NCBI RefSeq assembly: GCF_030013595.1
Contig: NZ_CP122768.1
DNA from: Escherichia coli
GTDB taxonomy: Bacteria > Pseudomonadota > Gammaproteobacteria > Enterobacterales > Enterobacteriaceae
Length of the DNA: 64,000 nt
Reading direction: 5' to 3' (one strand)
Shown here: positions 2,469 to 46,190 of the stretch, one piece after another
Position numbering within the stretch: position 1 is the first letter of the stretch
Layout of the letters: each line of letters opens with the position of its first letter
The notes under the pieces: model-generated
What the model was told of the DNA's origin: nothing
The model's input: only the letters and a program-made list of their open reading frames with translations
Database searches by the model: none
Made by a program: the position numbers and the translations under genes

Positions 2469-3953
2469 ATGCGAAAAATAATTACTCATTTCAAAGTTGT
2501 TTTAACGTTACTTCTACCAGTAACCGTATCTGCCCAGCAGATACAGTGGCAATCCTGTATGGCCAGTCAATTCAACCACTGGTTTGGTGAGGAAAAACCG
2601 TCTCCTGACTTACTATGTGGTTATTTGTCTGTTCCATTAAAATATACAGACACAGGCGGAGATGCTTCTTATGAAAAAAAATCACAAGTCAAACTAGCGT
2701 TGACAAAATTGCCGGCAAAAAGCAAGCATAAAGGAAGTATCCTGATAATAAGTGGTGGTCCCGGGTTACCAGGCATAAATCCTTATATTAACTTTGACTG
2801 GCCAGTCACAAATCTTCGTGAGTCATGGGATATTATTGGATTTGATCCTCGAGGCGTCGGACAGTCCACTCCGACAATAAACTGCCGGCAATCAGATACA
2901 GAGACTCAGGAAAACATAACCGAAAAGCAACAAGTATTAAATAAAATTAATGCCTGTATCCATAATACCGGAGCCGAAGTCATTCGCCATATCGGCTCTA
3001 ACGAGGCTGTATACGATATTGATCGTATTAGGCAAGCCTTGGGGGATAAACAACTGACAGCCGTGGCGTATTCGTATGGAACTCAAATTGCAGCCTTATA
3101 TGCAGAACGTTTTCCCTACAACGTAAGATCTATCGTTCTTGATGGAGTCGTCGATATCGATGACCTGGAGGACAACTTCACATGGCAACTCAAACAGGCA
3201 CAGAGTTATCAGGAAACGTTTGATCGCTTTGCATCCTGGTGTGCGCGTACAAAAAGTTGCCCGCTTTCTTCAGACAGAGATAAGGCAATAACTCACTTCC
3301 ATGAGCTATTATCAAAATTACATCACAAACCTTTATTAGACAGTAAGGGAGAAAATATATCTTCAGGTGAACTCATATCATTAACAACAGACCTTCTGCT
3401 ATGGCGTTCATCATGGCCAACCCTTGCAACTGCCATACGCCAGTTCTCTCAGGGGATTGTCAGTAATGAAATTGAAACTGCGCTCAGTGCTCCGATAGCC
3501 TCAGAAGAGTCAAGCGATGCTTCGGGGGTAATCCTCTGTGTAGATCAGGGGGATGAGCAATTAACACCAGAAGAGCGAAAATCCCGAAAAGACGCTCTTG
3601 CGAATGCCTTCCCGGCTATTAACTTTGACAATGGACGTTCCGATTCACCTGATTTTTGTGAATTATGGCCAATACATAGCGACCTGAACAAAACTCGCCT
3701 GAAAAATACTGTTCTGCCCTCTGGTTTACTGTTTGTAGCACACAAATACGACCCAACAACGCCCTGGATTAATGCCCGTAAGATGGCAGAGAAATTTTCC
3801 AGCCCGTTACTAACAATAAATGGTGATGGGCATACATTAGCTCTCACCGGAGTTAATTTATGTGTAGATAAAGCAGTTGTACATCACCTGATCACTCCAC
3901 AAAAAATAGAAAATATATACTGCCCAGGAAATTCTGAAGCAGAAATACAATAA
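2469..3953 (+). CDS. Secreted alpha/beta-hydrolase fold peptidase (S33 / TAP-like)
   Basis: 494-aa ORF; N-terminal signal peptide; GGPG oxyanion-hole motif (ISGGPGLPG); Ser nucleophile motif AYSYG; occupies the position where K-12 DLP12 has appY. Confidence 0.7.
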   Translation: MRKIITHFKVVLTLLLPVTVSAQQIQWQSCMASQFNHWFGEEKPSPDLLCGYLSVPLKYTDTGGDASYEKKSQVKLALTKLPAKSKHKGSILIISGGPGLPGINPYINFDWPVTNLRESWDIIGFDPRGVGQSTPTINCRQSDTETQENITEKQQVLNKINACIHNTGAEVIRHIGSNEAVYDIDRIRQALGDKQLTAVAYSYGTQIAALYAERFPYNVRSIVLDGVVDIDDLEDNFTWQLKQAQSYQETFDRFASWCARTKSCPLSSDRDKAITHFHELLSKLHHKPLLDSKGENISSGELISLTTDLLLWRSSWPTLATAIRQFSQGIVSNEIETALSAPIASEESSDASGVILCVDQGDEQLTPEERKSRKDALANAFPAINFDNGRSDSPDFCELWPIHSDLNKTRLKNTVLPSGLLFVAHKYDPTTPWINARKMAEKFSSPLLTINGDGHTLALTGVNLCVDKAVVHHLITPQKIENIYCPGNSEAEIQ

Positions 3954-28879: not shown

Positions 28880-29078
28880 CGTAACCTGTCGGATCGCCGG
28901 AAAGGACCCGCAAAATGATAATAATTATCATCTACATGTCACAACGTGCATCTACGCCATCAAACCACGTCAAATAATCAATTATGACGCAGGTATCGTA
29001 TTAATTGATCCGCATCAACTTAACGTAAAAACAACTTCAGACAATACAAATCAGCGACACTGAATACGGGGCAACCTC

Positions 29079-29273
29079 ATGTCAACGAAGAACAGAACCC
29101 GCAGAACAACAACCCGCAACATCCGCTTTCCTAACCAAATGATTGAACAAATTAACATCGCTCTTGATCAAAAAGGGTCCGGGAATTTCTCAGCCTGGGT
29201 CATTGAAGCCTGCCGTCGGAGGCTAACGTCAGAAAAGAGAGCATATACATCAATTAAAAGTGATGAAGAATGA
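29079..29273 (+). CDS. YlcI-like small protein
   Basis: 64-aa ORF resembling DLP12 ylcI. Confidence 0.6.
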   Translation: MSTKNRTRRTTTRNIRFPNQMIEQINIALDQKGSGNFSAWVIEACRRRLTSEKRAYTSIKSDEE

Positions 29274-29437
29274 ACATCCCGCGTTCTTCCCTCCGAACAG
29301 GACGATATTGTAAATTCACTTAATTACGAGGGCATTGCAGTAATTGAGTTGCAGTTTTACCACTTTCCTGACAGTGACAGACTGCGTGTTGGCTCTGTCA
29401 CAGGTTAAGTAGTTTGAATGATTAGCAGTTATGGTGA

Positions 29438-29644
29438 TCAGTCAACCACCAGGGAATAATCCTTCATATTATTATCGTGCTTCACCAACGCTGCCTCAAT
29501 TGCCCTGAATGCTTCCAGAGACACCTTATGTTCTATACATGCAATTACAACATCAGGGTAACTCATAGAAATGGTGCTATTAAGCATATTTTTTACACGA
29601 ATCAGATCCACGGAGGGATCATCAGCAGATTGTTCTTTATTCAT
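29438..29644 (-). CDS. YbcW-like small protein
   Basis: 68-aa ORF resembling DLP12 ybcW. Confidence 0.6.
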
Positions 29645-29887
29645 TTTGTCGCTCCATGCGCTTGCTCTTCATCTAGCGGTTAAAATATTACTTCAAATCT
29701 TTCTGTATGAAGATTTGAGCACGTTGGCCTTACATACATCTGTCGGTTGTATTTCCCTCCAGAATGCCAGCAGGACCGCACTTTGTTACACAACCAATAC
29801 TATTAATTGAAAACATTCCTAATATTTGACATAAATCATCAACAAAACACAAAGAGGTCAGACCAGATTGAAACGATAAAAACGATA

Positions 29888-30340
29888 ATGCAAACTACGC
29901 GCCCTCGTATCACATGGAAGGTTTTACCAATGGCTCAGGTTGCCATTTTTAAAGAAATATTCGATCAAGTGCGAAAAGATTTAAACTGTGAATTGTTTTA
30001 TTCTGAACTAAAACGTCACAATGTCTCACATTATATTTACTATCTAGCCACAGATAATATTCACATTGTGTTAGAAAACGATAACACTGTGTTAATAAAA
30101 GGACTTAAAAAGGTTGTAAATGTTAAATTCTCAAGAAATACGCATCTTATAGAAACGTCCTTTGATAGGTTGAAATCAAGAGAAATCACATTTCAGCAAT
30201 ACAGGGAAAATCTTGCTAAAGCAGGAGTTTTCCGATGGGTTACAAATATCCACGAACATAAAAGATATTACTATACCTTTGATAATTCATTACTATTTAC
30301 TGAGAGCATTCAGAACACTACACAAATCTTTCCACGCTAA
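29888..30340 (+). CDS. YbcV-like protein
   Basis: 150 aa from ATG at 29888 ([12 protein letters not shown]); DLP12 ybcV-like. Confidence 0.65.
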
Positions 30341-30630
30341 ATCATAACGTCCGGTTTCTTCCGTGTCAGCACCGGGGCGTTGGCATAATGCAATACGTGT
30401 ACGCGCTAAACCCTGTGTGCATCGTTTTTAATTATTCCCGGACACTCCCGCAGAGAAGTTCCCCGTCAGGGCTGTGGACATAGTTAATCCGGGAATACAA
30501 TGACGATTCATCGCACCTGACATACATTAATAAATATTAACAATATGAAATTTCAACTCATTGTTTAGGGTTTGTTTAATTTTCTACACATACGATTCTG
30601 CGAACTTCAAAAAGCATCGGGAATAACACC

Positions 30631-30924
30631 ATGAAAAAAATGCTACTCGCTACTGCGCTGGCCCTGCTTATTACAGGATGTGCTCAACAGACGTTTACTG
30701 TTCAAAACAAACAGACAGCAGTAGCACCAAAGGAAACCATCACCCATCATTTCTTCGTTTCTGGAATTGGGCAGAAGAAAACTGTCGATGCAGCCAAAAT
30801 TTGTGGCGGCGCAGAAAATGTTGTTAAAACAGAAACCCAGCAAACATTCGTAAATGGATTGCTCGGTTTTATTACTTTAGGCATTTATACTCCGCTGGAA
30901 GCGCGTGTGTATTGCTCAAAATAA
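30631..30924 (+). CDS. bor: Bor lipoprotein (serum resistance)
   Basis: 97 aa with lipobox LITGC; Bor-like sequence; opposite strand to the lysis genes. Confidence 0.85.
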   Translation: MKKMLLATALALLITGCAQQTFTVQNKQTAVAPKETITHHFFVSGIGQKKTVDAAKICGGAENVVKTETQQTFVNGLLGFITLGIYTPLEARVYCSK

Positions 30925-30955
30925 TTGCATGAGTTGCCCATCGATATGGTCAGCT

Positions 30956-31429
30956 CTATCTGCACTGCTCATTAATATACTTCTGGGTTCCTTCCAGTTG
31001 TTTTTGCATAGTGATCAGCCTCTCTCTGAGGGTGAAATAATCCCGTTCAGCGGTGTCTGCCAGTCGGGGGGAGGCTGCATTATCCACGCCGGAGGCCGTG
31101 GTGGCTTCACGCACTGACTGACAGACTGCTTTGATGTGCAACCGACGACGACCAGCGGCAACATCATCACGCAGAGCATCATTTTCAGCTTTCGCATCAG
31201 CTAACTCCTTCGTGTATTTTGCATCGAGCGCAGCAACATCACGCTGACGCATCTGCATGTCAGTAATTGCCGCGTTCGCTAGCTTCAGTTCTCTGGCATT
31301 TTTGTCGCGCTGGGCTTTGTAGGCGATTGCGTTATCACGGTAATGATTGACCGCCCATGACAGGCTGACGATGATGCAGATAATCAGAGCGGATATAATC
31401 GCGGTTACTCTGCTCACTGTTGCCCCCAC
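30956..31429 (-). CDS. rz: Spanin inner-membrane subunit Rz
   Basis: 157 aa with N-terminal TM segment and coiled coil; overlaps the endolysin 3' end. Confidence 0.8.
31015..31197 (-). CDS. rz1: Spanin outer-membrane lipoprotein Rz1, embedded in Rz
   Basis: 60-aa ORF in the +1 frame inside Rz; lipobox VVGC; proline-rich. Confidence 0.7.
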
Positions 31430-31911
31430 AAACAGACTTCACGCTCAATCTCACGACGAGTCATCAGGCCTTTCCATTGCTTACCGCCAGCGTATGTCCA
31501 GCGACGCAGCTGATCACATGCGCCTTTGATATCGCCCTGGTTTATTTTGCGAAGAAGCGTCGATGTTCTAAAATTGCCAGCACCCACATTGTAAACGAAT
31601 GAGTAAAGAGCGCCGCGCGTTGTTTCCGGTATATCGACTTTGATATACGGGTTAATTTGTCTGGCGACAGTGGCAAGGTCTTTATTCAAGAGTGCTTTGC
31701 ATTCTGCTTTGGTATACGTTTTACCGAGCATGATGTCTTTTCCGGTGTGTCCGTGACATACAGTCCATACACCAACAATATCTTTGTATGGTATGTAGCT
31801 GACACCTTCCAGACCATCGTTACCACTTGGGCCAGTGATTAACACTGATGCTATAGCAATTGCTCCGCCACCAATAGCAGCAGCAACGGCTTTTCGTAAT
31901 GATGGAGGCAT
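31414..31911 (-). CDS. SAR endolysin (lysozyme, phage-21 R type)
   Basis: 165 aa; Gly/Ala-rich weakly hydrophobic N-terminal SAR segment; E..D..T lysozyme catalytic pattern. Confidence 0.85.
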
Positions 31912-32126
31912 TATTCACCTCTCGCAGCCTTGCGCTTATCTTCTTTAATCTTGAAATAAAGGTTTGTCAGGTACGTCAGCAGGCCAAATACCAGGCTACC
32001 CAGCACACCTATTGCTGCCCACTGTGAGGGAGTGACTTTATCGAGCAGCTGTAAAAACCAGTAACCGGCACTACCTGCTGAGGTGCCATAGGCGACTCCA
32101 GTTGTTAACTTATCCATGAATTTCAT
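31911..32126 (-). CDS. Pinholin (S21-like holin)
   Basis: 71 aa from [23 protein letters not shown]; two TM segments; phage-21 pinholin-like. Confidence 0.8.
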
Positions 32127-32713
32127 AACCCCACCTCGCAGACAAAGCGGGTGTAAATTGAGGGAATACAACGTATCGCAAAAAAGCAGAAACGTAACTG
32201 ACTCCGAGTCAGTGAATAACTCAGGTATTGAGTTATCAGCTAATATCGAGACTCAAAAAATGGAAAAACCAGCTCGACGGCGGGTTTAAGCTGTGTGACG
32301 AAGTAACCACTCTTAACAGCATAACCAATTTTTTACGTACGTAAACCACTGAATGATATTTATGAGAATGCTACCGAGTGTTCAAAACATCACCACAAAT
32401 ACATAAGAAAACCTCAACAAATAACCAATAAATAATTTCCAGTGTTATTTTTAGCCGGTTTAAATTAAACAGACGAATTATAGAACCACCATAAATAACA
32501 GCCATTAATATAAATTAGCTAATAGATTTATTTTTGTTCAAATAAGAGCCATAAATAGGTTTCGATAGAAAAAGTTCAGATAAAAATAGAGATCTACTTC
32601 ACAAATTAAATGAGAAACTAAAACTTACATCTTGAAATAATCACATTGATTAGATGAATATTTATCGCGCAGTGACATCATTTTTTAATAATAGTTCAAA
32701 AAAAGGGCTCACG

Positions 32714-33811
32714 ATGAAAAAATTAACAGTGGCAATTTCTGCTGTAGCTGCATCAGTACTGATGGCGATGTCTGCTCAGGCAGCTGAAATTTATAATAAA
32801 GACAGTAACAAGCTGGATCTGTACGGGAAAGTTAATGCCAAGCACTACTTTTCCTCTAACGATGCAGATGATGGTGATACTACTTATGTTCGTCTGGGCT
32901 TCAAAGGCGAAACCCAAATCAACGATCAGCTGACTGGTTTCGGTCAGTGGGAATATGAATTCAAAGGCAACCGCGCTGAATCTCAAGGTTCCTCCAAAGA
33001 CAAAACCCGTCTTGCATTTGCAGGCCTGAAATTCGGTGACTACGGCTCAATCGATTACGGCCGTAACTACGGTGTAGCATACGACATCGGTGCGTGGACT
33101 GACGTTCTGCCAGAATTCGGTGGCGATACCTGGACCCAAACAGATGTGTTCATGACTGGTCGCACCACTGGTGTTGCAACCTATCGTAACAACGACTTCT
33201 TTGGTCTGGTTGATGGTCTGAACTTTGCTGCTCAGTACCAAGGCAAAAACGATCGTAGCGATTTCGATAACTACACCGAAGGTAACGGTGATGGCTTCGG
33301 TTTCTCTGCTACCTATGAATACGAAGGATTCGGTATCGGTGCAACTTATGCGAAATCTGATCGTACCGACACTCAAGTTAATGCAGGGAAAGTTCTTCCT
33401 GAAGTATTTGCTTCCGGTAAAAATGCAGAAGTTTGGGCCGCAGGTCTGAAATATGACGCTAACAACATTTACCTGGCCACTACCTATTCTGAAACCCAGA
33501 ATATGACTGTATTTGCTGATCACTTCGTTGCTAATAAAGCTCAAAACTTCGAAGCTGTTGCACAATATCAGTTCGATTTCGGTCTGCGTCCGTCCGTTGC
33601 TTACCTGCAATCTAAAGGTAAGGATCTTGGAGTATGGGGCGATCAGGACTTAGTCAAATATGTTGATGTAGGTGCAACCTATTACTTCAACAAAAATATG
33701 TCTACTTTCGTTGATTACAAAATCAACCTGCTTGACAAAAATGACTTCACTAAAGCACTCGGTGTAAGCACTGATGACATCGTTGCTGTAGGTCTGGTTT
33801 ACCAGTTCTAA
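32714..33811 (+). CDS. nmpC: Outer membrane porin NmpC (OmpD-like), intact
   Basis: 365 aa from [11 protein letters not shown]; general porin sequence ending in F; lies between Q and the lysis genes on the opposite strand, as in DLP12. Confidence 0.9.
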
Positions 33812-33820
33812 TCTGATTAC

Positions 33821-33861
33821 GAAAAAGATATGTTGCGGGAGGCGTTGCCTCCCCAACATAT
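33821..33861 (-). terminator. Candidate tR' late terminator downstream of Q
   Basis: Long hairpin atatgttgcgggagg..cctccccaacatat followed by a U-run on the minus strand, ~150 nt after the Q stop. Confidence 0.5.
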
Positions 33862-33948
33862 AAGTGGCTCCCTCAAGCCACTTCCTTTAGGAGCACAACC
33901 TTGCTTCTAACTATATAAACCTTCTGTTATATATTACCCTTTATTTTT

Positions 33949-33974
33949 GGGGGCGTTGCAACGCCCCATTTTTA
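33949..33974 (+). terminator. Intrinsic terminator downstream of nmpC
   Basis: Perfect palindrome ggggcgttgcaacgcccc followed by ttttt. Confidence 0.65.
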
Positions 33975-34000
33975 ATAACTTTCAGTAAACAATTGGCATA

Positions 34001-34384
34001 TTAATTAGAGTTATTAACAACGATATCCATCTCTAACCGGATATCTAATGCCATTAACATCCCTTCAATTATGCCCTCAGCCTTCTGTAACCTTTTCCCG
34101 ATATAACCATCAGAGCAGCAATGCTTACCTGCCAGTGACATGAATGTCATACCGACTACATAATAATCTACTAATAAATCGTGCAAATCGCTGTTGTTCT
34201 TTTTCAGACGGGCCATGCACCCGCAAATAATCATCGCGTCATCGTCACAACATTGCGGGCGAGATTTTACTTTTGAAGGAATTAATCCCTTAAAACCGGC
34301 GGCAATGGACGACCAGGTCACATCTTCATGATTATTAGCCGCCCACGCTCCCCAACGTTCAAGAACCATCTGAATATCACGCAT
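34001..34384 (-). CDS. Late antiterminator Q (phage-21 / DLP12 QuuD type)
   Basis: 127 aa from [18 protein letters not shown]; Cys-rich Q-like sequence. Confidence 0.85.
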
Positions 34385-34401
34385 TAACTTTCTCCACAAA
34401 A

Positions 34402-35397
34402 TCAGGCCAGCACACCAATCGCCAGTGCGCGATCGATAAAACGAAATATCAGCTCCAGCTGGGAGCCATACTTCTCTTCAAATGCCACGGTATCCGCATG
34501 CAGTTCGTCGTGGTGTTTTCTGCACAAAGGCAACACAAAAAGGTCATGCGCTTTTGTACCCATTCCACCCTGACCATGGCCTATCAGATGATGCGGATCA
34601 TCAGCTGGCTTTCCACAACATGCACACGGCTGTGTCTTAACCCAGCGCGTGTACTTTTCATTAACCCAGCGGCGACGTTTTGGGCGTAACATAAAAGACT
34701 CCGGCGACTCCGGATCCACTTTCAGCGCCAGCACCTTTTTCGCCTTATCCTGGATGATGCTGGTGGCAGGAACCGAAGGCACAAGGTCACTTTCCCGGGT
34801 AACAGACGGCACAACAGGCTTCGGTAATCTCAGTGCCTTACGGGCTGCACTTTCCGGTAAGGCATCCGCCAGATCATTACGAATCAGCCACCAGCACAGT
34901 TCCGGCATTGTCACAACGTGACTGTCATCAAAACCGAGATCCCGACGCACAACAGACAACACCCAGCGGGCACAGTTATCCGTTGCCATTGATTCCAGCC
35001 GTTCCGTGAACTGATCGCGCAGCTGGTTATCGCAGTGCCAGCACAGACGGATTGCACCCGGAGCGTGTCGCATTGTGGTCATGTTCTCGCTGTGCCAGTC
35101 GGAATGAGGCCACTGGCAGCCTTTTTCACGAAGTAACCAGCTTTCAAGACATTCCACGCCACCAGCACGACGGATCACTGCCTCATTGCGGAACACGGCC
35201 CGAACGGCAGGATCATCCGCCAGCGGTTGTGATGCCGCCGGAACGGCACCACTGGCGAAAGATGAATAACGCTCCGGCTCAGGCTCCAGCAGGACACGCC
35301 CCTGCATAAACAGGGGCATCAGCTCTGAACCTGGCCTGAACAATACGATCCCCATACGCGGGGCAATTTCAGGGGTCAGTAGTGCTCTCACGGTCAC
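34402..35397 (-). CDS. DUF968 / NinG-like protein with HNH-type Cys-His motif
   Basis: C-terminal [25 protein letters not shown] motif; GTG start at 35397 (alternative ATG further in). Confidence 0.65.
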
Positions 35398-35398
35398 C

Positions 35399-36208
35399 TC
35401 AATGAACGGTATCGAGCAGCTTTAACAGCTCAGGGAATCGGGATTCGAAGAAATGCGGCTGTGTCTCGCGCGGATTTGCGGGACTGGTGATGTTCTTGCC
35501 GAACATGCAACCTTTCGCTGTCAGCGACCAGAATTTTTTGATGTTGTTAATCGCTGTACGGCTGTATCGTTCGCGCTGCTCGACGATCCCCAGTTTCACC
35601 ATCTGGTGATATGCCTGATTAGCCGTCAGGCGTATACCATACTGTTTCAGCAGTGCACTCAGTGACAGTGTCGGGCGACTTGAGCCATCGTGTGCATCAG
35701 CAGGAGCATCAATGGCATAGCGCGGTGCCAGATTCGGTAAGCCAACAGCCTCCTGGAGTTTCTGACAGGCACCAAGCACTGAAGAGTTAGACAGGTTTAA
35801 CTCCCGGCGCATAAAGTCCAGCAGGATCACGCCAGCCTGCATCTTGTCAGCAGCCTGTCCGGATAATTTTTCCGGTGCGCTGGTTACCATATCGAAAGTA
35901 CGGATCACCTTCAGATGGAATGACGGGCTGATCCACATTGCATAGGCATACACCAGTTCCTTGCAGACATACGTTCCCCGTTCATTTCCCCCATGAATCA
36001 CACTCACCGGGTCAACACCCAAATTCTGGGTGTTGGTCAATTCATGAACAAGCTCAACAGTTTGTTGGCTGGAAAGAAACTTTCCCGGCTCCTTGGTTCT
36101 GGCATTTGCACCAGATGCTACTGCTGCGCGATGCAGATCGTTCAGGCTGTAACGCCCATAAGCATCACGACGAACTTCAATACCATCAATGACCATCAGA
36201 TTATTCAT
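35399..36208 (-). CDS. KilA-N domain protein (antirepressor-like)
   Basis: N-terminal KilA-N-like region (MNNLMVIDGIEVRRDAYGRYSLNDLHRAA). Confidence 0.7.
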   Translation of the reverse strand: MNNLMVIDGIEVRRDAYGRYSLNDLHRAAVASGANARTKEPGKFLSSQQTVELVHELTNTQNLGVDPVSVIHGGNERGTYVCKELVYAYAMWISPSFHLKVIRTFDMVTSAPEKLSGQAADKMQAGVILLDFMRRELNLSNSSVLGACQKLQEAVGLPNLAPRYAIDAPADAHDGSSRPTLSLSALLKQYGIRLTANQAYHQMVKLGIVEQRERYSRTAINNIKKFWSLTAKGCMFGKNITSPANPRETQPHFFESRFPELLKLLDTVH

Positions 36209-36227
36209 ACTTCGTTTCTCCTCTTGA

Positions 36228-36617
36228 TCAGGCGGCTGCACCCGCCGTTTTCTCGTACTTACTGATAGTGATCTCGACCTTCCCTTTCGGGATAACCGGT
36301 CCCCACTCCACCAGCATTCTTTTCACCTGACTGTCGTCTTCCCACACACCCGCATGGGTCAGGGCGTCAAACAGCGCCTTGTTATAGTTGTCCAGATCGC
36401 GGATCCGGTTATCCGGAGGAAACAACACGATCTCCACTGAAGCAGGTGCCGACGTTGGTTTCGGCAGACGACGTAACTGCTCAACTATTGCTGCGCACGC
36501 CGCGCTCTGGAATTTGCGCCCCGCTGCGCTTATCAGACTCTTACCAGCAAACGCCCCTTTGTTGGGGTGTCGCCAGTACGTGTTCACGCTGGGCGGGAAA
36601 GGCAAGATCAGCTTCAT
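36228..36617 (-). CDS. rusA: Holliday junction resolvase RusA
   Basis: 129 aa, RusA-like sequence with conserved acidic residues. Confidence 0.85.
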   Translation of the reverse strand: MKLILPFPPSVNTYWRHPNKGAFAGKSLISAAGRKFQSAACAAIVEQLRRLPKPTSAPASVEIVLFPPDNRIRDLDNYNKALFDALTHAGVWEDDSQVKRMLVEWGPVIPKGKVEITISKYEKTAGAAA

Positions 36618-36940
36618 ACTTTCAGGCCCCTCTCATGTAACCAGTGGGCTGCACGCAGCCTGGCGTTTTCCTCACCGGCAAGCAGTGCGCGGATAATCCC
36701 GACCGCCTCGCTGTCGTCGTCCTTCACCGCGGTATGAAGAGTTATCCCCCGGGCCACGCCACGCTTTATCGTGATGACGCCTTTTTTCTCCAGTGCGCGA
36801 AGATGCTCCACCGCTGCATTCACCGAACGGTATCCCAGCATGGTTGCCACCTCCTGATTGGTTGGCGGAAAGCCACGTTCTTGCTGGTAAGAAATCAGCA
36901 TATCCAGCACCTGCTGCTGGCATTGAGTTAACGTCGTCAT
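36614..36940 (-). CDS. LexA N-terminal DNA-binding-domain-like protein (no peptidase domain)
   Basis: 108 aa; resembles the LexA winged-HTH domain (QQQVLDMLISYQQERGFPPTNQEVATMLGYRSVNAAVEHLRALEKKGVI). Confidence 0.6.
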   Translation of the reverse strand: MTTLTQCQQQVLDMLISYQQERGFPPTNQEVATMLGYRSVNAAVEHLRALEKKGVITIKRGVARGITLHTAVKDDDSEAVGIIRALLAGEENARLRAAHWLHERGLKV

Positions 36941-37590
36941 GCCGCCATCTCCCTGACCAGTTTTTCCGCCTGCTGGCGAACCTGCGCCAGAAAGGCCTCA
37001 CCACATGCCTCAAGTTCATCGCGCCCGATGTAGCTGATTGCCGGTCCCTTCCAGGTCTTGTCGAAAACAGCAATAGCACCAGCGAAGAAAGCGCCTGTCG
37101 GCACCTGCTTCTCGTCCTTCGGGATAAACCAGGCTGGCAGTTCAAAACCAATACGCCCGCGAATAAAAGCAATATGGTCTGCATCTTCCGGCCACCACAC
37201 TTCGCTGGTGGCAGCTTTGATCAGGAAAACATAGCGCCCGCCTTTATCACGCATGGCACTGGCATGCTTCATGATGTAACGCATGCCGGTGATGTATTGC
37301 CCCTCATGCTGACTGGCGCGGCTGTACGGGGGATTACCAAAGGCAGCACCTTTAAGCTCCGCAAGACGTTCTGACCAGTCATGCGCCAGCGCGTTGTCTT
37401 CCGCAGTGTAATACGCGGCGCATTTGGCGTTATCACCATCAGTAAACAGATCCAGAACAAACGGGCCAAACAGGGTGTTAATTCCCCAGAAAATGTTGTC
37501 CGGCGTGCGCCACTGATCGCCCACTTCCTTCAGTTCATGGGCTGGTTTGTTCCGCAGCTCCACCAGCGCCTGGCAATATTTATTACTCAT
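36937..37590 (-). CDS. Phage N6-adenine DNA methyltransferase (Dam-like)
   Basis: 217 aa from MSNKYCQ; phage Dam-family features (NPPY motif); no adjacent restriction gene. Confidence 0.7.
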   Translation of the reverse strand: MSNKYCQALVELRNKPAHELKEVGDQWRTPDNIFWGINTLFGPFVLDLFTDGDNAKCAAYYTAEDNALAHDWSERLAELKGAAFGNPPYSRASQHEGQYITGMRYIMKHASAMRDKGGRYVFLIKAATSEVWWPEDADHIAFIRGRIGFELPAWFIPKDEKQVPTGAFFAGAIAVFDKTWKGPAISYIGRDELEACGEAFLAQVRQQAEKLVREMAA

Positions 37591-44708: not shown

Positions 44709-45079
44709 TGGAGCCATACAGCCTCACACTCGATGAGGCCTGTCAGTTTCTTAAGATATCCAGACCAACCGCCACCAACTGGATACGAACAGGCCGCCTA
44801 CAGGCAACACGTAAAGATCCAACCAAGCCAAAATCTCCTTACCTCACAACACGGCAAGCTTGCATTGCGGCGCTTCAGTCTCCGCTGCATACTGTCCAGG
44901 TGAGCGCGGGTGATGGCATAACAGAGGAAAGAAAATGTCACTCTTCCGCAGAAATGAAATATGGTATGCCTCGTATTCGCTCCCGGGCGGGAAACGAATT
45001 AAGGAATCTCTTGGCACAAAGGACAAGCGGCAAGCTCAGGAGTTGCACGACAAGCGAAAAGCAGAACTCTGGCGAGTAG
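44708..45079 (+). CDS. xis: Putative excisionase (Xis)
   Basis: ATG at 44708 overlapping the upstream stop (TAATG); N-terminal HTH-like region ([31 protein letters not shown]); overlaps the int start out of frame; the 3' end is uncertain. Confidence 0.5.
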
Positions 45080-46098
45080 AAAAGCTAGGGGATTTACCTG
45101 ATGTCACTTTTGAAGAGGCCTGCCTAAGATGGCTTGAGGAAAAAGCTGATAAAAAATCTCTCGATTCAGATAAAAGCCGGATTGAGTTCTGGCTTGAACA
45201 TTTTGAGGGTATAAGGCTTAAAGATATCTCGGAGGCAAAGATTTACTCTGCTGTAAGCAGAATGCATAACAGAAAGACGAAAGAAATATGGAAACAGAAA
45301 GTTCAGGCCGCCATCAGGAAAGGTAAAGAACCGCCTGTTTATGAACCAAAGCCAGTATCAACTCAGACAAAGGCAAAGCATCTTGCCATGATAAAGGCCA
45401 TTCTCCGTGCTGCAGAACGCGACTGGAAGTGGCTGGAAAAAGCGCCTGTCATCAAGATACCAGCGGTCAGAAACAAGCGAGTCAGATGGCTGGAAAAGGA
45501 GGAAGCAAAACGCCTTATTGATGAGTGCCCCGAACCACTGAAATCTGTCGTCAAGTTTGCGCTGGCAACTGGTCTGAGAAAGTCGAACATCATAAATCTG
45601 GAATGGCAACAAATCGACATGCAGCGACGAGTTGCCTGGGTGAATCCAGAAGAGAGCAAATCAAACCGCGCCATTGGTGTGGCGCTGAACGATACCGCCT
45701 GTAAAGTGTTGCGTGATCAAATAGGCAAGCATCACAAATGGGTGTTTGTACATACCAAGGCGGCTAAGCGAGCAGATGGAACATCAACGCCTGCGGTCAG
45801 GAAGATGCGCATCGACAGCAAGACATCATGGCTATCAGCTTGTCGTCGTGCAGGAATTGAAGATTTCCGTTTCCATGACCTCAGACACACCTGGGCAAGC
45901 TGGCTGATCCAGTCAGGCGTCCCATTATCTGTGCTTCAGGAAATGGGCGGATGGGAGTCCATAGAAATGGTTCGTAGGTATGCTCACCTTGCGCCTAATC
46001 ATTTGACAGAGCATGCAAGGAAAATAGACGACATTTTTGGTGATAATGTCCCAAATATGTCCCACTGTGGAATTATGGAGGATATAAAGAAGGCGTAA
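44935..46098 (+). CDS. int: Tyrosine integrase (DLP12 IntD type)
   Basis: 387 aa; C-terminal catalytic region with HDLRHT..Y; ends 16 bp from argU. Confidence 0.9.
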
Positions 46099-46113: not shown

Positions 46114-46190
46114 TGGCGCGCCCTGCAGGATTCGAACCTGCGGCCCACGACTTAGAAGGTCGTTGCTCTATCCAACTGAGCTAAGGGCGC
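46114..46190 (-). tRNA. argU: tRNA-Arg (UCU) argU
   Basis: Reverse complement gcgcccttagctcagttggatagagcaacgaccttctaagtcgtgggccgcaggttcgaatcctgcagggcgcgcca is a cloverleaf with anticodon TCT and terminal CCA. Confidence 0.9.

Follow-up and report, generated by a model that had tools for sequence, protein, structure and literature searches.

The prophage porin gene nmpC/Lc and the regulator IpeX encoded in its 3'UTR have long been known in Escherichia coli. In the lambdoid prophage DLP12 (qsr') of strain K-12, located at the argU/intD site, nmpC has the neighbours quuD, essD, rrrD, rzpD, borD and ybcV, and is interrupted by an IS5 copy inserted after codon 346; most of the phage genes have been lost. 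Phage PA-2 reportedly bears an NmpC-like porin gene, lc, in the same position, with the same ipeX sequence downstream, and its lysogens are said to make this porin while OmpC is lowered, a lysogenic conversion to 'protein 2' (work of Schnaitman and co-workers in 1975-1986 and of Castillo-Keller et al. in 2006).

We analyzed a 64,000-nt stretch of an E. coli genome (hereafter, the window) that has the same neighbours in the same order at the same site as K-12 DLP12. The window contains a full-length lambdoid prophage of the DLP12 type at the argU tRNA site, and the region around nmpC is the standard Q-nmpC-lysis module of such a prophage. Its genes, and the elements associated with nmpC, are as follows.

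34001 to 34384, − strand: late antiterminator Q (QuuD, 127 aa, PF06530, Q21/933W family), 79% identical to Q of a 933W-type Stx2 phage
33950 to 33975, + strand: nmpC/IpeX intrinsic terminator, GGGGCGTTGCAACGCCCC (33950-33967) then ATTTTTAA, with the U-run ATTTTT after the stem
33822 to 33861, − strand: bulged GC-rich hairpin with a 15-bp stem followed by CTTTTT, a candidate tR'
33812 to 33975, + strand: nmpC 3'UTR, the IpeX RNA region, about 163 nt to the U-run and highly structured
32714 to 33811, + strand: nmpC, an intact 365-aa porin of the OmpC family (ORF list, profile and structure matches, phrog_410 E 8e-220)
32515 to 32713, + strand: nmpC promoter and 5'UTR region, AT-rich (about 28% GC), equivalent to the -199..-1 stretch of K-12
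31911 to 32126, − strand: S21-type holin/antiholin with a dual start (MKFM...), the first late gene
31414 to 31911, − strand: endolysin (lysozyme)
30956 to 31429, − strand: spanin Rz, with an Rz1-like ORF embedded at 31015-31197

Identity to K-12 DLP12 is 99% for the protein, 98% for the Q-nmpC spacer and 96% for the nmpC-essD spacer. The window differs from K-12 in its uninterrupted nmpC and in being a full-length prophage with head and tail genes, and the genes upstream of Q (DUF968, KilA-N and RusA) are unlike those of K-12.

The initial annotation described nmpC as a full 365-aa porin on the opposite strand between Q and the lysis cassette, and the ORF list, the profile match and the alignment with K-12 all bear this out. 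The listed + strand open frame spans 32654-33811, within which the biological start, ATG 32714, gives a protein with the N-terminus MKKLTVAIS. The Pfam family Porin_1 (PF00267) covers it end to end (E 1.8e-156, profile positions 1-337 of 337), and it scores 527.8 bits against the NCBIfam OmpC subfamily, for which the cut-off is 484. Matches to solved OmpC/OmpK36 structures (E about 1e-136) extend over the mature protein, from its residue 1 up to and including the C-terminal Phe. The signal peptide has 23 residues, so that residue 24, which begins the mature N-terminus AEIYNK, is aligned with residue 1 of the mature OmpC chains, and the VYQF end is common to both. By its match to these chains, NmpC is predicted to form a trimeric 16-stranded barrel acting as a diffusion channel. 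None of the porin ORF, the flanking genes, the hairpin and the + strand terminator is due to a chance ORF.

The RefSeq protein WP_000737283.1 ('porin') is identical to the window NmpC. Realignment to the IS5-split K-12 copy, with the frameshift raised in the initial annotation in mind, showed none (99.1% identity over residues 1-347 and 95% over 345-365). That annotation had also implied that an intact nmpC is unusual, a view that does not hold: of the 74 IMG/VR loci that span the gene completely, 73 have it intact. An uninterrupted nmpC is the rule in E. coli, to which the K-12 insertion is the exception. At a query coverage of at least 80%, 2309 of 5426 complete E. coli genomes have the Q-nmpC-lysis module, as do 36 phage records, and every IMG/VR locus that has this Q and reaches far enough shows the same architecture. 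Among phages carrying the module, 434B (which has the IS5 copy) and PhiR29 are viable.

As proposed earlier, nmpC appears to have its own promoter and terminator. The upstream region is 96% identical overall to the PnmpC region of K-12 across the aligned stretch; deletion of the K-12 -199..-1 stretch abolishes PnmpC activity (PMC11677980). No -35/-10 hexamers were matched there by a strict promoter scan, which reported three promoter-like sites, a number below the chance expectation; all three lie within Q. The nmpC cassette would be a unit expressed in lysogens independently of phage development, adding an extra general-diffusion porin. We considered whether nmpC is instead intact yet quiescent in this host, with no conversion phenotype under ordinary conditions. 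The title of a cited paper places nmpC among 'two quiescent porin genes' of E. coli B, and the 28% GC of the upstream region is of the kind typical of silenced horizontally acquired DNA, which may point the same way. Against quiescence, prophage nmpC is transcribed 10-fold above local background in LF82 and is strongly expressed at 37 °C in CFT073, at both the RNA and the protein level (PMC9928086, PMC12890032), and PnmpC of K-12 is active enough to drive the IS5 transposase (PMC11677980). We therefore regard quiescence as unlikely, though it deserves some weight, and the earlier description of nmpC as a conversion gene is upheld in the sense of an accessory gene expressed in lysogens.

The 189-bp spacer between nmpC and Q has a mean column identity of 98% in an alignment with K-12 and phage 434B. 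We take IpeX to be present in the window because this spacer is 98% identical to that of K-12; the structured fold of the region (-62.4 kcal/mol, z -7.6, with four or five hairpins) and the + strand terminator agree with the earlier suggestion of this sRNA near the nmpC 3' end. The literature describes IpeX as an RNA of 167 nt, made from the porin promoter within the porin transcript and processed from it, and reports that it lowers OmpC and OmpF production. In K-12, IpeX is downstream of the IS5-split gene, whereas in the window an intact mRNA ends in it. An Rfam scan of 29000-37000 with E up to 1 returned neither IpeX nor another relevant family; its sole match was a chance snoRNA inside the DUF968 gene.

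Across 27 variants of the spacer, the stem of the nmpC/IpeX terminator is largely conserved, and variation falls on the last two bases of the loop. The bulged hairpin at 33822-33861 is missed by the strict promoter/terminator scan; on the − strand it has a dG of -21.3 kcal/mol (z -5.9), and on the + strand it forms the 5' hairpin of IpeX. One variant inserts a T opposite its bulged base and another deletes the bulge. Covariation within the spacer was otherwise uninformative, because the 27 variants are too similar, and only these loop and bulge changes carry information. We consider that this hairpin more probably ends the Q (early-right) transcript than acts as tR'.

The initial annotation had late transcription pass a tR' at 33821-33861 and then run antisense through nmpC to the holin. 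Comparison with related phages points instead to a late promoter on the far side of nmpC from Q, where we identified the following elements.

32345 to 32264, − strand: probable pR'-qut-tR' unit of 82 bp, by homology to 933W-type pR' and terminator
32345 to 32340, − strand: -35 hexamer TTTACG
32344 to 32333, − strand: Q-type-specific palindrome TTACGTACGTAA in the upstream half of the unit, followed by an A-run; candidate Q-binding element
32323 to 32318, − strand: -10 hexamer TATGCT
32315 to 32303, − strand: conserved initial transcribed block TAAGAGTGGTTAC
32287 to 32264, − strand: terminator region AAACCCGCCGTCGAGCTGGTTTTT

The two hexamers, separated by 16 nt, have 8 of 12 consensus matches (4/6 + 4/6), below the threshold of the scanner. 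The assignment comes from homology: 32346-32264 (− strand) aligns at 76-92% with the end-of-Q segment of 933W, H-19B-type and phiP27 phages, and GenBank record OP797663 labels the homologous segment 'pR' putative late promoter' with a rho-independent terminator. The record of Stx2 II gives a different putative -35/-10, further downstream. Relative to an Stx2 phage, window positions 34051-32347 (1.7 kb, i.e., the Q C-terminus, IpeX, nmpC and its promoter) replace just 88 nt. The block occurs once, in late orientation, in 83 of the 83 fetched loci that cover it. It lies about 140-220 bp upstream of the holin, with 138 nt between the end of the terminator and the holin gene.

In the window, the tR' allele carries a G-to-T change (GCGGG to GCTGG) that breaks the CCCGC/GCGGG stem and permits a weaker CAGCUU/GAGCUG stem. 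The hairpin adjoining Q is the stronger terminator of the two; like the low hexamer score, this counts against the assignment. The tR' hairpin and its U-run are intact in K-12, 933W, phiP27 and SfII, and the GCGGG and GCTGG alleles are split about 37:38 among the loci.

To relate the block to Q, we compared 66 distinct configurations of the two. The palindromes fall into eight classes, as do the Q helix-turn-helix regions, and the two sets correspond one-to-one with zero exceptions. The pairing holds across unrelated intervening cargo, though part of the association could reflect ancestral linkage and not binding. Q and the block are 0 to 3 kb apart, and the gap between them usually contains opposite-strand cargo. 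They lie side by side in 933W, ASU11 and a QuuD-like phage; in the last configuration, a QuuD-like Q is followed 2 nt past its stop codon by the same TTACGTACGTAA block, which represents the uninserted state. Other opposite-strand genes occupy the same gap in SfII, PhiR55_1 and Stx1_EH1995.

Because a 933W-type block lies downstream, its palindrome matches the Q type, and the Q-block distance is variable, nmpC is most likely situated between Q and the late promoter. We thus propose, with good though incomplete confidence, that the window contains a standard module in which a self-contained nmpC cassette is inverted between Q and its late promoter, and that late transcription does not cross nmpC. 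Upon induction, QuuD, encoded 1.7 kb away, would act in trans at its cognate pR'/Q-binding site/tR' unit at 32345-32264 (− strand), probably by binding the palindrome. Late transcription would start near 32311, pass the short leader terminator and enter the holin, lysis and morphogenesis genes, and the hairpin at 33861-33822 would stop unmodified transcription leaving Q. The start site and both terminator roles are predictions from the sequence. Late transcripts that start downstream of nmpC, the outcome that the initial annotation had set against its own proposal, are what this comparison suggests.

The earlier arrangement nevertheless has some evidence in its favour. It would place pR' directly after Q, as in phage lambda and phage 21, with the hairpin 33861-33822 as tR' and the Q-modified polymerase reaching the holin only after traversing nmpC antisense over about 1.7 kb, so that collision silences nmpC. 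The corresponding candidate is:

33961 to 33910, − strand: Q-adjacent pR' candidate, with TTGCAA at 33961-33956, a 19-nt spacer, TAATAT at 33936-33931 and a repeated -10-like TATAGT at 33915-33910

This is the best sigma70-like − strand match in the spacer, helped by the repeated -10-like motif, and a strong − strand hairpin with a U-run follows it. The TTG of its -35 is kept in 26 of the 27 spacer variants while neighbouring loop bases vary, and late transcription antisense to an opposite-strand gene has a precedent in phi80 tai (PMC11364771). However, a 19-nt spacer is poor for sigma70, and the element that matches the Q type sits in the block downstream of nmpC, the same palindrome being found immediately after a QuuD-like Q that has no cargo. 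Moreover, the Q-nmpC spacer is not found in the closest nmpC-less relatives of this Q: ev087 and the Stx phages are unalignable past about Q codon 120. The IpeX spacer therefore looks like a part of the nmpC cassette, not a Q utilisation site, and we judge a Q-adjacent late promoter improbable. With the late promoter probably downstream of nmpC, late transcription is unlikely to exert antisense control on nmpC. For the same reason we do not favour the idea that IpeX has a perfect antisense partner in a pR' leader RNA.

The K-12 DLP12 lysis cassette has also been placed under RpoE, and the RpoE-dependent start maps to about 32665 in the window ('-121 to +650' fragment, primers in the supplement; PMC7918800); the predicted pR' start lies about 350 nt further downstream. 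The motif concerned is:

32671 to 32698, − strand: sigmaE-type motif TGAACTA-N16-TCACT, in a stretch identical to K-12

A sigmaE regular expression with TCNAA missed this motif, which was located by mapping the published primers. It coincides with the RpoE-dependent start, and the tR' allele of the window is weakened, as would suit a conserved block that is a relic, the lysis genes being transcribed mainly from this host promoter in the nmpC 5' region or by N-antiterminated early-right read-through. Such a relic is very improbable, given that full-length plaque-forming phages with the module need strong Q-dependent expression of about 20 kb of morphogenesis genes, that the block is so uniformly kept in copy number and orientation, that the same K-12 literature lists Q-type antiterminator control of the lysis cassette (PMC7918800), and that a sigmaE promoter and pR' can coexist.

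The comparisons also allow a more general proposal, which we put forward tentatively as somewhat less probable than its opposite. The gene for a 933W/DLP12-type Q (PF06530) and its cognate late promoter may be separable, with the gap a general landing site for lysogen-expressed cargo, usually inverted, and each Q subtype may recognise its own palindrome and A-tract between -35 and -10, unlike the direct repeat of Q21. If so, many prophage annotations wrongly take pR' to abut Q, and the pairs of palindrome and helix-turn-helix constitute a readable Q-DNA recognition code. Cargo seen in the gap includes the nmpC/IpeX porin cassette, lipoproteins and candidate anti-phage systems, and PADLOC matched 3 of 10 tested cargo proteins. 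As a recurrent cargo site with some defence-like genes, the Q-pR' gap could aid prophage annotation, and pairs of Q proteins and DNA elements could help in the search for the promoters of Stx and other late-region cargo.

With respect to described Q systems, the layout of the block is that of the curated phage 21 record, in which the Q-binding element lies between -35 and -10 and a terminator follows within about 50 nt. TAAGAGTGGTTAC is similar over its first four bases to TAAGCT, the pause element of phage 21; a hexamer combining A2 and T6 (the -10-like, sigma-dependent pause) was looked for in the window leader and not found, a further point against the assignment. Phage 21 has a direct repeat as its Q-binding element, in contrast to the palindromes that are the candidates here. 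The Q proteins of Stx phages are 79-82% identical to that of the window, and the TAAGAGTGGTTAC leader is identical in the 933W/H-19B-type block; the palindrome takes the form TTACGATCGTAA in 933W and TTACGTACGTAA in the window. In 933W and phage 21 the pR' unit abuts or overlaps the end of Q, whereas in the window 1.7 kb of opposite-strand cargo lies between them.

Situated between elements that are adjacent in relatives, with a promoter and a terminator and 28% GC upstream, the nmpC cassette has the features of a moron. With the lambdoid morons and phi80 tai it shares a dedicated promoter and terminator, expression from the prophage and an orientation opposite to late transcription. The authors of the phi80 study hypothesised that the arrangement of tai turns the gene off during the lytic cycle (PMC11364771). 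The opposite-strand gene of phi80 lies inside the late operon, whereas the apparent position of the nmpC cassette, upstream of the late promoter, would put it outside the late operon.

An intact porin gene, nmpC, lies between the late antiterminator gene Q (quuD) and the lysis genes on the strand opposite to both, as the initial annotation had it. The ORF list gave the following coordinates.

32654-33811, plus strand: nmpC open frame (annotated start at 32714, end at 33811, 365 aa)
34001-34384, minus strand: Q, matching Phage_antitermQ
31911-32126, minus strand: holin of 71 aa, matching P21 holin S
31414-31911, minus strand: lysozyme, matching Phage_lysozyme
30956-31429, minus strand: Rz, matching Rz

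The 365-aa NmpC covers the whole Pfam Porin_1 profile (E 1.8e-156), exceeds the NCBIfam OmpC-subfamily cut-off, aligns with solved OmpC/OmpK36 chains over the whole mature protein (residue 1 to the C-terminal Phe), and is identical to RefSeq WP_000737283.1. No frameshift was found when the protein was compared with the two IS5-separated fragments of K-12 (99.1% and 95% identity). Of 5426 complete E. coli genomes, 2309 contain the 3.1 kb at 31400-34500 (coverage ≥80%), as do 36 phage records; several matches reach 99.9-100% identity, and carriers of the Q-nmpC-lysis stretch include phages grown on E. coli C or K-12. In all 80 IMG/VR loci with the window's Q, the order was Q-nmpC-holin wherever the contig was long enough, and nmpC was intact in 73 of the 74 IMG/VR loci with full nmpC coverage. 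Two NmpC alleles among the IMG/VR loci (365 and 360 aa; ~90.7% identity) are distinguished chiefly by residues 182-232 and 268-272 (window 33257-33409 and 33515-33529), and DNA identity falls to 67-73% in both stretches. We infer that these are surface loops, with the kind of divergence expected where diversifying selection or recombination acts on a receptor or antigen.

That nmpC is a conversion gene with its own promoter and terminator is correct and already known. The 28% GC stretch upstream of nmpC aligns as the counterpart of the K-12 -199..-1 region, deletion of which abolished PnmpC activity, with the start site mapped by 5'RACE (PMC11677980). Prophage nmpC was expressed 10-fold over background in an LF82 lysogen, and its expression in CFT073 at 37 °C was strong (PMC9928086/PMC12890032). 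The 3'UTR runs on the plus strand from 33812 to a terminator at 33950-33967, followed by a U-run, and its fold is very stable (-62.4 kcal/mol, z -7.6). IpeX, a published RNA from this 3'UTR, had rightly been placed in the neighbourhood: the 189-bp nmpC-Q spacer and its K-12 counterpart share 98% identity, and Rfam has no model for the 3'UTR/IpeX. This spacer was not found in the closest Q relatives without nmpC, and on that distribution it appears to be part of the nmpC cassette.

For the late promoter, we consider a position downstream of nmpC likely. QuuD shares 79-82% identity with Q of 933W/H-19B-type Stx phages, and despite this similarity no meaningful alignment was obtained between the DNA 3' of Q and theirs. 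When the nmpC-holin spacer was used as query, 32346-32264 (minus strand) matched ~290 Stx-phage records right where their Q gene ends, and record OP797663 labels exactly this segment 'pR' putative late promoter' and places a rho-independent terminator after it. Relative to a Stx2 phage, homology extends along Q to 34052 and resumes at 32346, the intervening gap being 1.7 kb in the window versus 88 nt in the phage. Multiple alignment of this block (32345-32264, minus strand) gave these elements.

-35: hexamer TTTACG, common to the aligned sequences
-10: form TAT..T (TATGCT in the window), spaced 16 nt from the -35 in the window and in rows of 933W type
Directly after the -10: TAAGAGTGGTTAC, invariant
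Terminator: CCCGC...GCGGG hairpin, then a U-run

In the block, no hexamer could be clearly assigned as a sigma-dependent pause element. The window's terminator (32264-32287, minus strand) carries a G-to-T change (GCGGG to GCTGG) that breaks the conserved stem; the T allele makes a weaker, complementary CAGCUU/GAGCUG stem before the same U-run. Both alleles are about equally common among loci (GCGGG:GCTGG ~38:37), and this polymorphism could alter basal leakage into the lysis genes. A small leader hairpin, GUGG-N8-CCAC (GUGG...UCAC in the window; 32296-32311, minus strand), lies within and just after TAAGAGTGGTTAC and is kept across Q types, at homologous positions in loci L005, L088 and L089; it may serve as a pause or Q-loading RNA element. 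The holin mRNA 5' leader (32127-32260, minus strand) folds strongly (-39.4 kcal/mol, z -3.7). It contains the perfect inverted repeats AUAACUCA...UGAGUUAU and CUGACUC-G-GAGUCAG, and a stem sequesters the region immediately 5' of the dual start; the K-12 leader has a 16-bp deletion relative to the window.

All loci with the conserved leader motif were collected and an upstream same-strand Q of the QuuD/933W family was sought, which yielded 177 cases representing 66 distinct Q-block configurations. Between the Q stop codon and the block lay 0 to ~3 kb; 15 of the 66 were adjacent, 42 had opposite-strand ORFs in the gap, 6 had same-strand ORFs, and 3 were unclassed. Every configuration had a short palindrome and then an A-tract between the -35 and -10, and the palindrome type tracked the Q helix-turn-helix region without exception (66 configurations, eight classes).

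Palindrome types and the Q regions or types paired with them.
TTACGTACGTAA: ..CSDG(Y/H/T)IGK(R/K)LQ; QuuD and three related Q clusters
TTACGATCGTAA: CSDTCIGKRLH; 933W
TTACAATCGTAA: RSDCWVGRLLQ
(C/T)GCGTACGC: SLR.IAK...SDGT.RK.LQ; ~14 Q clusters, many different cargos
CGGTCCGC: SKRK.A...K.EK.IRIE.Q; 7 clusters
Remaining classes: three more unique pairs, making eight

The downstream half of the block is common to different Q types, and SfII and Stx1_EH1995, alike in Q type and palindrome, have different downstream sequence. One QuuD-like Q has the window's palindrome just 2 nt past its stop codon. The one-to-one pairing is the pattern expected of a Q utilisation site; judged from sequence, it indicates that the late promoter probably lies downstream of nmpC, at 32345-32318.

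The initial annotation instead had pR' adjoining Q and late transcription running antisense through nmpC, which we regard as improbable. The minus strand of the nmpC-Q spacer does contain a weak promoter-like pair (TTGCAA-19-TAATAT), repeated -10-like TATAGT and, after these, a strong hairpin at 33861-33822 that has a bulge and is followed by CTTTTT (dG -21.3, z -5.9). However, the DNA after Q does not align with the Stx-phage relatives of QuuD, the putative pR' annotated for that group corresponds to the block, and the spacer is missing from the closest nmpC-less relatives. The gene, its intactness, the cassette and IpeX thus stand, whereas block homology and the Q-type-matched palindrome argue against late transcription through nmpC. 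With the promoter downstream of nmpC, QuuD would bind the block palindrome, transcription would start near 32311, and Q-modified transcription would read through the leader terminator; the 33861-33822 hairpin, whose bases form the first IpeX stem on the other strand, would stop unmodified transcription leaving Q. An RpoE-dependent lysis-operon start was published for K-12 at ~32665 (window position; PMC7918800), where a TGAACTA-N16-TCACT motif is found, and some expression independent of Q may come from this promoter. If lambda is a guide, N-modified polymerase arriving from the early-right operon could still traverse nmpC.

In related phages, the Q-pR' gap holds 41 very diverse protein clusters, mostly on the opposite strand (for example in L088, L092, L093, L102, L153, L157 and other loci). 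Three of ten gap proteins tested with PADLOC had matches to candidate defence families.

KAP-NTPase: PDC-S20, 9e-177
NsnA-like DUF262 protein: NsnA, 4e-45
HNH protein: PDC-M68A, 8e-27

The gap thus looks like a recurrent cargo site resembling a defence/accessory hot spot, of which a shallow literature search found no description. It also holds several pairs of a ~300-aa protein and a small membrane protein, without matches. In Lambda_ev087 (L006), an opposite-strand lipocalin Blc gene (2879-3559) takes nmpC's place. Its Q is 89% identical to the window's, with the first 76 aa identical and the DNA-binding part different; this makes Q a mosaic whose breakpoint falls immediately ahead of the helix-turn-helix. 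A second lysogen-type cluster of opposite-strand accessory genes lies downstream of Rz inside the late region, as in DLP12.

29807-30340, plus strand: ybcV (DUF1398)
30631-30924, plus strand: bor, serum-resistance lipoprotein
29079-29273, plus strand: ylcI

The prophage (~5800-46190) contains terminase, portal, capsid, tape measure and J-type tail tip genes, and has the following integrase and tRNA genes.

44935-46098, plus strand: integrase, adjoining the tRNA
46114-46190, minus strand: tRNA-Arg(TCT), argU, the DLP12 attachment site

The window is seemingly collinear with a strain whose prophage at argU has a full head and tail gene set, and together with the tRNA and integrase this identifies a full-length lambdoid prophage at the DLP12 site. 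Coordinate offsets against the near-identical strain 2012EL-2448 suggest that an IS3 in tail-assembly gene T is missing from the window, and the prophage may therefore be functional.

The PA-2 lc porin is known, as are DLP12 nmpC, IpeX and Q-dependent late control. K-12 DLP12 and the laboratory phage 434B carry the same Q-nmpC-lysis module, but with IS5 after nmpC codon 346. For phi80 tai, late transcription was proposed to switch an opposite-strand gene by running antisense to it (PMC11364771), whereas the evidence here is against such switching for nmpC. The curated phage 21 record shows the layout of the block: its Q-binding element sits between the -35 and the -10, and a terminator follows ≤50 nt from the start.
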